This document shows positions 6,276 through 9,540 of a DNA stretch of 64,000 nt, in pieces. A program made the position numbers and the translations under genes. The DNA is from Escherichia coli O157:H7 (GTDB lineage: Bacteria; Pseudomonadota; Gammaproteobacteria; Enterobacterales; Enterobacteriaceae). Numbering within the stretch: position 1 is the first letter of the stretch; each line of letters opens with the position of its first letter. The DNA is taken from NCBI RefSeq assembly GCF_013167455.1, contig NZ_CP038328.1, one strand, 5' to 3'. A model generated the notes under the pieces. It had not been told where the DNA came from, did not search any database, and saw only the letters and a list, made by a program, of their open reading frames with translations.

Positions 6276-7547
6276 TTCGAGCATTTTGCGGATCTGCTCC
6301 TGTTGATGTGTTGTCAGTGTCAGGTCCGTATAGATCAGCGGTGGTGAAAAGAGCGGTAACGGCATGGTATAAGGAGCAATAATCAGTGCCGCGCCACGCG
6401 GAGCGCCTGTCTGCAAAAATGCCTTTACCGACATATGTTTAATGTTGAGCGGCAGTAACGTTAGTTCGCGTAACTGTTGCTCAATCTGCGCTTCTCGCTC
6501 GCTATCATTCCCGGTCAGTAGAATAATCTGTTTTTCATGCAGATCGTTTTCCTGCATTAGCCAGGCACCGAAAATCACCGCGACCAGACCACTTTCCTCA
6601 TCAGAAAGATGGACGCCGTATTCACTTTCAAATCCGGCCAGCGCCGCGCGGGTGGTGCGTACCAGGCGTGGATACAGTCTGGCGAACTCTTCCGGCAGGG
6701 TATTATCAATACCGATGGCAAACAAACTGCGATTTAACGCCTGGGCGAGGTGGGTATAAAGCTGATCACATAACCCCTGTTCATCATAAAAACGAACATT
6801 TCCCAGCTCACGAAAATGGTTTACCAGACGTTTGATAGACTGACGCAATTGTCTGTCCCGCTGATGCGCATCCCGCAATGGATCGGGAACCCGCAACATG
6901 GAAAAAAGTAGTGCCATAAACAGTGGCTCATCAGGTGGTACAGGCTGGAGCGCCCGACGCTGCCAGTGGCGTCCAATTTCCTGCGCTACCTGAAATTCAA
7001 GGCAGGATTCCGCCCAGCGACGTTGGAGCGGATTAAACTGAGGCGTAATTCCAGCGTGGTGCTGCAGCAAACAATATTGCAGATACAGACACAGGAAATG
7101 AATATCGCGCGATTCAAAGCGTTTTTGCAGCCGTCGGGAGCAGAGATTCACTAACGCTTGTAGATTGGTATCGTCGTAAAAGTTACGCGCAATTCCGCGC
7201 CGCTTCAGTTCACTCTTCAGGGCGGGGGTGAATTGGCTGGTAATAAATGACGGACACAGACGGAAACCACGTCGTAGCCAGTGAAATAAACACAAACGTT
7301 GGTTAAGCACTGTACCTTCAACCCGGTAGCTACCGTCATAACCAGTCGTCAGTGTGAGTTGATGATAGCGCAGGATCTCCCGTCCTGTTTCGCTGATATC
7401 AAGACTGGCAATATCATCATCCACACCATTAAGCTCGCTGAAGGTTGCCATGGTGGCGGTCAACCCCGGCTGAAAGAGCGTCAGCAAGATCTGGCAGCGG
7501 CGCTGGGGAGCCGAAAGGACAGATGGTGGAGCAAGCGTAGGCATCAT
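6267..7547 (-). CDS. csiE: Stationary-phase inducible protein CsiE
   Basis: ORF track 433 aa; start chosen at MMPTLAPPSV giving 426 aa; 3' end overlaps hcaT 3' end by 9 bp (convergent). Confidence 0.85.
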   Translation of the reverse strand: MMPTLAPPSVLSAPQRRCQILLTLFQPGLTATMATFSELNGVDDDIASLDISETGREILRYHQLTLTTGYDGSYRVEGTVLNQRLCLFHWLRRGFRLCPSFITSQFTPALKSELKRRGIARNFYDDTNLQALVNLCSRRLQKRFESRDIHFLCLYLQYCLLQHHAGITPQFNPLQRRWAESCLEFQVAQEIGRHWQRRALQPVPPDEPLFMALLFSMLRVPDPLRDAHQRDRQLRQSIKRLVNHFRELGNVRFYDEQGLCDQLYTHLAQALNRSLFAIGIDNTLPEEFARLYPRLVRTTRAALAGFESEYGVHLSDEESGLVAVIFGAWLMQENDLHEKQIILLTGNDSEREAQIEQQLRELTLLPLNIKHMSVKAFLQTGAPRGAALIIAPYTMPLPLFSPPLIYTDLTLTTHQQEQIRKMLESA

Positions 7548-7737
7548 CTGTAGATCTCCCATAAGCATAATTGATAAGAATAGCTAAAGTTTGCTCAGGG
7601 AAATGGCGAAGGGAATGCTAATCATCAGAAATGTTGGCAAGCGTCACAGAATTTTTCTCATCTTAAACTGTCCTGACCAGTGGATTAGCATGTCTTAAGG
7701 TGATTTTGTGAATGATTATCGTGCTAGAGATCATGGG

Positions 7738-8592
7738 TTAGTTCTGCGGATTCAACGCGCTAAGGATAAAGTTCACCATCTGTTCGCGATAAACGTCGCC
7801 GTGACGATCGGAAAAAGCATCAATGTGTTCGCCATCCGGGATTAGGATCAACCGTTTTGGCTCTTTTGCCAGGCTATACAACTTTTCGCTGTGCTGCCAT
7901 GGGATAACGTGATCAGCTTTACCGTGAATGAGTAAAAGCGGGATCGGGCTGACGCTGGCGATATAATTTTCGCCGCTGTAACTCTCATCAAGTAAGTAGC
8001 CACTGCCGGGGATCATCTGGTTGGCGATGGTTGCATAAGAGGCAAATGTGGAGTCGAGGATCACTGCACGTATGCCTTCACGATCACCCTGACCAATAAC
8101 AGCAAGAATATTCGCCCCGCCAATACTCTGCCCGAACAGCACCAGCCGTTGTGGGTTTACATCACTGCGATGGCGCACCACATTGATGGCGCTTTGCGTA
8201 TCGTCCAGCAATCCGGCCTGGGACGGCGTGCCTTTTGATTTACCAAACCCGCGATAATCAAACATAAAAACGTTGAAATTACGCTCGGGTAACCAACTGA
8301 CCAGCGGCCAGTGGGCGGACATATTTCCGGCATTGCCGTGAGCATGAATGATGGTTGCGATGGCGTTGTCAGCAGGGCCCGTCGAAGAAGGAATAAACCA
8401 GCCTTGCAGACGAGTACCGTCCTTAGCCGTAAATTCGACGGATTCCGCCGACCAGGGGTCGGGACCGTAAATTTTATCGTCAGGATAATAGAAGAAGTTG
8501 ATGGCAACGCGCGGCACTAAATAAACGCAGAAGGCAACAACAAAGAGAATAAACAGAATTTTGGGAACGCGTTTGTTCACTGGCAGTGCCAT
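7738..8592 (-). CDS. yfhR: Alpha/beta-hydrolase (S9 peptidase-like) membrane-anchored protein
   Basis: ORF track frame 7738..8619; internal ATG at 8592 (MALPVNKR...) is preceded by AAGGAAAGG Shine-Dalgarno, the 8619 ATG is not; N-terminal TM helix, GQSIGG nucleophile elbow. Confidence 0.85.
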   Translation of the reverse strand: MALPVNKRVPKILFILFVVAFCVYLVPRVAINFFYYPDDKIYGPDPWSAESVEFTAKDGTRLQGWFIPSSTGPADNAIATIIHAHGNAGNMSAHWPLVSWLPERNFNVFMFDYRGFGKSKGTPSQAGLLDDTQSAINVVRHRSDVNPQRLVLFGQSIGGANILAVIGQGDREGIRAVILDSTFASYATIANQMIPGSGYLLDESYSGENYIASVSPIPLLLIHGKADHVIPWQHSEKLYSLAKEPKRLILIPDGEHIDAFSDRHGDVYREQMVNFILSALNPQN

Positions 8593-8736
8593 AACCTTTC
8601 CTTGCGACTTCTTTATCATCCATTAATCGGGGAAAGATGGTGGGAGAGTGACGAAAGAAAGTAAAGCGGTGAGGAAGTATTTCGGAATAGCGCCTGAAAG
8701 GCGAGGGCGGGTGAGTGATATCACCCGCCTGAGTCA

Positions 8737-9540
8737 TTAACGCTTCAGAGCGTCGCTTAACTCGTCACGCATGTTCGCCAGCATGGCTTTAACAACACGC
8801 GGGTTACCAGCAACGATGTTACCGGTCAGCATATAGTTATGACCACCGGTGAAGTCGCTGACGATGCCGCCCGCTTCACGAACAAGCAGCTCGCCTGCAG
8901 CGAAGTCCCACGGGCGCAGACCGATTTCAAAGAAACCGTCAACACGACCCGCAGCGACGTAAGCCAGATCCAGCGCCGCAGAACCGGTACGACGGAAGTC
9001 TGCACATTCGTTGAACAGTTTGCCGACGATGTTGATGTAGGTAGTGGCGTACTGTTTTGCTTTGAACGGGAAGCCGGTCGCCAGAATAGTACCGTCGAGA
9101 TCGCGAGCGGTGCTGCCGCGCAGACGGTAGCCGTTCAGCTGTGCGCCCTGACCGCGAGTGGCGGTGAACAGTTCGTTACGCATAGGATCGTATACCACAG
9201 CAACTTCGGTGCGGCCTTTGATACGAACGGCGATAGATACCGCGAAGTGCGGCAGACGTTTGATAAAGTTGGTAGTGCCATCCAGTGGATCGATAACCCA
9301 TTGAACATCCTGATCAGTACCTTCAAGTTCACCGCTTTCTTCGGTGATGATGGTGTGCTGTGGGTAAGATTTACGAATCGTGTCGATAATCACCGCTTCG
9401 GCAGCTTTATCTACGTTGGTCACGAAGTCGTTACTGCCTTTCTGGCTCGCTTCTACAGCGTCCGGGGTTTCATAGTTTTTGGCAATCAAATTACCCGCCT
9501 TGCGCGCTGCGCGCACGGCGATGTTCAGCATCGGATGCAT
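8737..9540 (-). CDS. suhB: Inositol monophosphatase family protein
   Basis: 267 aa ORF with IMPase motifs (EESG, DPLDGT, WDFAAG). Confidence 0.93.
   Translation of the reverse strand: MHPMLNIAVRAARKAGNLIAKNYETPDAVEASQKGSNDFVTNVDKAAEAVIIDTIRKSYPQHTIITEESGELEGTDQDVQWVIDPLDGTTNFIKRLPHFAVSIAVRIKGRTEVAVVYDPMRNELFTATRGQGAQLNGYRLRGSTARDLDGTILATGFPFKAKQYATTYINIVGKLFNECADFRRTGSAALDLAYVAAGRVDGFFEIGLRPWDFAAGELLVREAGGIVSDFTGGHNYMLTGNIVAGNPRVVKAMLANMRDELSDALKR

Follow-up and report, generated by a model that had tools for sequence, protein, structure and literature searches.

The yfhR gene of Escherichia coli O157:H7 is in our assessment (probability about 0.93) translated from the ATG at position 8592 through ordinary Shine-Dalgarno (SD)-directed initiation, yielding a product of 284 residues. 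This choice of 8592 over the first in-frame ATG, 8619, had been put forward in an earlier note on this DNA, and SD energetics, annotation, tetracycline-inhibited ribosome profiling (TetRP, in K-12) and comparative DNA agree on it. Positions refer to the window, i.e. the whole stretch of 64,000 nucleotides that was analysed, in which the minus-strand order is suhB (9540-8737), yfhR and csiE. Over a 1061-nt query (window 7700-8760), the window is 100% identical to E. coli O157:H7 strain ECP19-598 and 98.6% identical to K-12 MG1655. The start at 8592 is already known, since it stands in the K-12 annotation from the 2014 record onwards and in all RefSeq records inspected, and our finding reproduces that correction. 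The elements around the start are the following:

Positions 7738 to 8592, minus strand: yfhR coding sequence, 284 codons plus stop, from the open reading frame (ORF) listing; 855 nt in both the RefSeq and the K-12 records.
Positions 8590 to 8592, minus strand: ATG that very probably is the functional start of yfhR; SD-led, annotated, with a TetRP signal in K-12 and an aligned Met in 9 of 10 orthologues.
Positions 8595 to 8603, minus strand: Shine-Dalgarno element AAGGAAAGG, its AGGA core at 8602-8599, 6 nt from ATG 8592.
Positions 8617 to 8619, minus strand: upstream in-frame ATG, used as the start by the EDL933 annotation of 2001 and the K-12 annotation of 2006, unsupported as a start.
Positions 8623 to 8625, minus strand: in-frame TAA closing the yfhR frame upstream, found by an upstream in-frame walk along the sequence.

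On the minus strand the text runs GATTAATGG ATG ATA AAG AAG TCG CAA GGA AAG GTT ATG GCA CTG CCA. A TGG codon sits between the capping TAA and ATG 8619, and as the TAA at 8625-8623 caps the ORF, no start is possible beyond 8619. The two candidate ATGs are in frame with each other and lie 27 nt, or 9 codons, apart, so that the product has 293 residues from 8619 and 284 from 8592; the shorter form begins MALPVNKRVPKILFILFVVAFCVYLVPR, and use of 8619 would place the additional residues MIKKSQGKV, with three Lys, in front of it. Another frame holds an 85-codon ORF (8480-8737, minus strand), which covers the spacer between suhB and yfhR and overlaps the 5' end of yfhR; it is unannotated in every record inspected and probably spurious. 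A start ambiguity of the same kind as in yfhR is seen in the following gene, csiE (7547-7568, minus strand): its longest ORF starts at ATG 7568 and encodes 433 aa (MLMGDLQMMPTL...), and RefSeq and K-12 annotate 426 aa from ATG 7547.

The ribosome-binding potential of each candidate was scored as the best duplex between its -20 to -2 region and the 3' end of 16S rRNA (ACCUCCUUA), and 1954 ATGs from both strands of the window served as the reference set. ATG 8592 reaches -6.6 kcal/mol, a value matched by only 3.7% of the reference ATGs, with the AGGA core ending 6 nt before the codon; the statement in the earlier note that AAGGAAAGG (8603-8595) precedes this ATG at good spacing is thus borne out, and a purine-rich anti-16S stretch about 5-9 nt upstream is what characterises a canonical SD-led start. 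For ATG 8619, preceded by the 20 nt CATCTTTCCCCGATTAATGG, the best duplex amounts to +0.3 kcal/mol, and 81% of the reference ATGs score at least as well; by this scoring no ribosome-binding site lies upstream of it, just as had been claimed. The contrast between the two codons in ribosome-binding potential is real. An in-frame GTG at 8580 was included in the scoring and gave -3.4 kcal/mol.

The surroundings of ATG 8619 are A/U-rich, with a predicted mean unpaired probability of 0.43 versus 0.34 around 8592. Further upstream, a pyrimidine run of the leader, AUCUUUCC (8631-8638, minus strand), is complementary to the SD region GGAAAGGU (8594-8601). In the minimum free energy fold the upstream CCAUCUUUCC pairs with the yfhR SD, which would mask it; since this fold is no more stable than that of shuffled sequence (z = 0.37), sequestration of the SD by CCAUCUUUCC was set aside, and the pairing between leader and SD may be due to chance.

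Evidence on initiation itself comes from K-12. Nakahigashi et al. (2016; PMC4909307) list yfhR (EG13453/ECK2531) in their Table S3 with the TetRP code '3. 2014', which according to the table legend means 'signal at 2014 initiation site', and neighbouring rows carry other codes ('2. 2006', '4. multiple', '4. no signal'). For 12 of 27 manually inspected genes, yfhR among them, the reads were confined to the 2014 start; the gene was checked there by manual inspection only (PMC4909307), and the TetRP evidence is accordingly a categorical manual call, made in K-12 rather than O157 for a gene of weak expression. The earlier note had named ribosome-profiling initiation peaks as one way to check its claim, and TetRP indeed places the K-12 yfhR signal at the 2014 site, which is window position 8592 (PMC4909307). 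The TRAINSPOTTER, INRI-seq and thiol-redox proteome data sets hold no entry for yfhR, and an N-terminal peptide of YfhR was likewise not found in these searchable data sets.

Comparative data were obtained by an orthologue scan with one genome per species, followed by an in-frame walk upstream from the aligned start. Within Escherichia, ATG 8592 and AAGGAAAGG are invariant in the eight aligned sequences, and the region of the upstream ATG varies. Both E. whittamii and 'E. coli' SCPM-O-B-8794 have an in-frame TAA (from CAA) in the interval separating the two ATGs, 12 nt upstream of the equivalent of ATG 8592, with TAAGGAAAGG kept in both genomes; the upstream ATG itself is ATT in these two and in E69, and ATA in E. 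coli strain WP8. Exact-allele counts in complete E. coli genomes show how these variants are distributed: the reference 61-mer with the upstream ATG is present in 4372 of about 5423-5426 genomes, the SK1144-type allele, which also keeps the ATG, in 566 further ones and the ATA allele in at least 174, strain 042 included. By the same counts, the ATT-only and TAA alleles are found in essentially none of the complete E. coli genomes, and they belong to divergent Escherichia and not to E. coli sensu stricto. Two strains differ more deeply: the yfhR of ETEC L5_E1779 carries a frameshift and is annotated as a pseudogene, and in strain N25 the query match is limited to the first 141 nt (the suhB end), so that some E. 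coli can dispense with the gene.

Outside Escherichia, orthologues with 54-71% identity were found in Klebsiella spallanzanii, Pseudocitrobacter, two Superficieibacter and Enterobacter sp. kpr-6. Four of these five begin at a Met aligned with 8592 and the fifth starts two residues later, none of the five having the N-terminal extension; N-terminal conservation in orthologues, the other check that had been proposed, hence points to the same codon. The protein alignment places a start Met in the 8592 column for nine out of ten orthologues, and within these ten the extension could be encoded solely by O157/K-12-type E. coli and E. albertii. AAGGAA or AGGGAA precedes the start in the Klebsiella, Pseudocitrobacter and Enterobacter orthologues, and in K. 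spallanzanii a frame of 171 nt is open upstream of the aligned ATG and contains neither ATG nor GTG. The open frame with a start codon at 8619 is thus not conserved in the relatives examined and is absent outside Escherichia. Taken together, conservation of ATG 8592 with its SD and variation of the upstream codon argue that the latter is a lineage-restricted, dispensable part of the 5' leader.

The history of the annotation follows the same line. In the RefSeq entry that matches the window exactly, yfhR is WP_001301747.1, an 'alpha/beta hydrolase' of 855 nt at window 8592..7738; K-12 MG1655 has b2534 (NP_417029.4, 'putative peptidase', 284 aa) at 2664390-2665244, which corresponds to window 8592..7738, its start at 2664390 (NC_000913.3) being position 8592. 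All eight RefSeq records inspected (O157, K-12 and six other E. coli) start at the equivalent of 8592. At least 1000 contigs encode exactly the 284-aa sequence (UniRef name, representative YHFR_ECO57), and two encode exactly the 293-aa one, both with old GenBank annotations: CB9615 and EDL933, where AAG57647.1 is labelled 'putative enzyme (3.4.-)'. The K-12 start was shifted by +27 nt between U00096.2 (2006) and U00096.3 (2014) (PMC4909307, Table S3), and the 2014 revisions were compiled via EcoGene 3.0 from experiments and comparison of related genomes (PMC4909307, PMC3531124). The EcoGene 3.0 paper (Zhou and Rudd 2013, PMC3531124) describes the general method of start revision and makes no statement specific to yfhR.

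The sequence of events we favour would then be as follows. AAGGAAAGG at 8603-8595 would pair with the 3' end of 16S rRNA and thereby set the P-site of the 30S subunit on ATG 8592; translation would yield a putative 284-residue alpha/beta-fold serine hydrolase, whose signal-anchor, most likely uncleaved, probably keeps the catalytic domain on the periplasmic side of the inner membrane. ATG 8619 would lie within the 5' untranslated region, by happenstance in frame in E. albertii and the majority of E. coli, and was probably once taken as the start by automatic calling of the 'longest ORF'.

Other readings of the same region have to be weighed against this one. The 293-aa protein of the 2001 EDL933 and 2006 K-12 annotations could be the main product, with 8619 as the true major start; this corresponds to the longest ORF and was annotated as such in AAG57647.1 and U00096.2, but the codon has no SD and no initiation signal reported at it, relatives have lost the ATG or carry an in-frame stop, and the extension occurs in no non-Escherichia orthologue, so that we regard it as very improbable. 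In its strictest form, with 8619 as the sole site of initiation, the proposal is effectively excluded, because E. whittamii and SCPM-O-B-8794 close the frame with TAA and nevertheless conserve the protein downstream. Hardly any weight at all falls on a start further inside the gene, at the GTG of codon 5 (8580), from which the product would begin MNKRVPK...: GTG is a permitted start codon and this one is in frame and ahead of the hydrophobic segment, yet the SD lies 14 nt upstream of it, which is too far, the duplex reaches no more than the -3.4 kcal/mol given above, E. whittamii has GCG in its place, orthologues outside Escherichia lack it, and no annotation uses it. It was rejected on SD spacing and the lack of conservation.

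Somewhat less remote, though still unlikely, is that both ATGs are used in strains that keep the upstream one, such as O157:H7, K-12 and E. albertii, a minority of initiation at 8619 giving the 293-aa form (with MIKKSQGKV added) beside the main 284-aa product. In the window, 8619 is in frame with 8592 and no stop comes between them, the upstream ATG is kept in most E. coli, and Nakahigashi et al. (PMC4909307) describe further genes in which two starts work. The A/U-rich and relatively unpaired context of 8619 also counts in its favour, and from these slightly more open surroundings a weak SD-independent initiation would be conceivable. Against it stand the missing SD (+0.3 kcal/mol), the TetRP class, which is that of the '2014' site and not 'multiple' (PMC4909307), and the comparative record: since at least 174 E. 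coli genomes lack the ATG and a TAA shuts the frame in sister species, no extended form is under conserved selection. A minor YfhR proteoform arising under some condition from SD-independent initiation at 8619, with a lengthened basic cytoplasmic tail, is in our view just as doubtful; any such protein would be specific to certain lineages, as the ATA of some phylogroups and the TAA of the sister species abolish it. Translation from ATG 8592 therefore remains our preferred reading.

The product gives the start its practical context, and two of its features are needed here:

Positions 8512 to 8559, minus strand: hydrophobic segment ILFILFVVAFCVYLVP, codons 12-27, seen by hydropathy and conserved in orthologues.
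Positions 8125 to 8127, minus strand: codon of Ser156 in the putative nucleophile elbow GQSIG, a GxSxG motif at residues 154-158 inside the Pfam matches.

YfhR matches Hydrolase_4, Abhydrolase_1, Abhydrolase_6 and Peptidase_S9 above the Pfam gathering thresholds, with 70.6 bits for PF12146 (cut-off 27), 65.8 for PF00561 (25.8) and 35.1 for PF00326 (22.6). An Asp (in HGKADHV) and a His (in DGEHID) are candidates for the rest of the triad, by sequence reading alone. No NCBIfam equivalog is reached at its cut-off, the best being the UilS lactonase with 64 bits versus 400, and the solved structures nearest by sequence are generic alpha/beta-hydrolases and esterases. The matches to PF12146, PF00561 and PF00326 and the GQSIG elbow are shared with the S33/S9-type alpha/beta-hydrolases, from which YfhR differs by its predicted N-terminal membrane anchor.

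Within the first 11 residues K7, R8 and K11 are positive, and a hydrophobic segment of 15-16 residues follows. On the Kyte-Doolittle scale, the mean over 19 residues peaks at 2.55, in the windows that begin at residues 12 and 13 and cover residues 12-31, the usual threshold for a membrane segment being 1.6. By the -3/-1 rule no signal peptidase I site is recognisable, as the sequence after the core (VYLVPRVAINFF) offers no small residues at these positions and the one Ala in it, A30, is preceded by Arg at position -3. The N-terminal segment is most likely an uncleaved signal-anchor in N-in/C-out orientation, whereby we infer from the protein sequence both how the protein sits in the membrane and that no signal peptide is cleaved off. 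The earlier note had also used a transmembrane or signal segment at the N-terminus as an argument for 8592: the segment is present, and the coordinates, motif and peptide that it gave are all correct, but the argument does not distinguish the starts, because both candidate products contain the segment and the nine extra residues MIKKSQGKV, with their three Lys, would suit a cytoplasmic N-terminus as well. The single Cys of YfhR, Cys22 (8527-8529, minus strand), lies within the hydrophobic segment and is invariant in all ten orthologues, down to 40% identity over the aligned N-terminal stretch. A lipoprotein reading of this residue was rejected: F, V, I or Y stands at -1 of Cys22 in ten of ten orthologues, so that there is no lipobox ([LVI][ASTVI][GAS]C).

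Upstream of the candidate starts, the 117-nt spacer between suhB and yfhR (8620-8736, minus strand) is nearly invariant across Escherichia. A consensus scan of 8500-8850 gave neither a sigma-70 promoter nor an intrinsic terminator, and the Cappable-seq supplementary tables hold no transcription start entry in the yfhR interval. Directly after the suhB stop (8737-8739) lies a strong 9-bp G+C-rich hairpin, GGCGGGUGA-N6-UCACCCGCC (8706-8729, minus strand). The 63-nt segment 8680-8742, which comprises this hairpin and a small second stem (8691-8703), folds with -24.1 kcal/mol (z = -4.2), and among E. coli strains the stem of the hairpin is invariant and its loop polymorphic. It was left uncalled by the terminator scan because no U-tract follows the stem. 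The hairpin could stabilise the suhB 3' end, serve as a processing site or terminate transcription weakly, and its role matters for the question of co-transcription of yfhR with suhB.

The significance of the start at 8592 is one of annotation hygiene only. How long a cytoplasmic tail precedes the predicted membrane anchor depends on the correct N-terminus of YfhR, and the choice of start affects tagging and cloning; no new biology is opened, given that K-12 annotation has carried the correction from the 2014 record onwards and all inspected RefSeq records have it too. What the case illustrates is that a curated start-site correction can be recovered from raw sequence. Compared with its counterpart in K-12 (b2534, EcoGene EG13453, NP_417029.4), the O157 gene (WP_001301747.1) is the same gene with the same start, and nothing differs. 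The re-annotations of EcoGene 3.0 and TetRP (PMC3531124, PMC4909307) show the same pattern, in which a longest-ORF start without ribosome-binding site is set against a downstream ATG with an SD, and like yfhR these cases were resolved by conservation and inspection of the ribosome-binding site and then by ribosome profiling.
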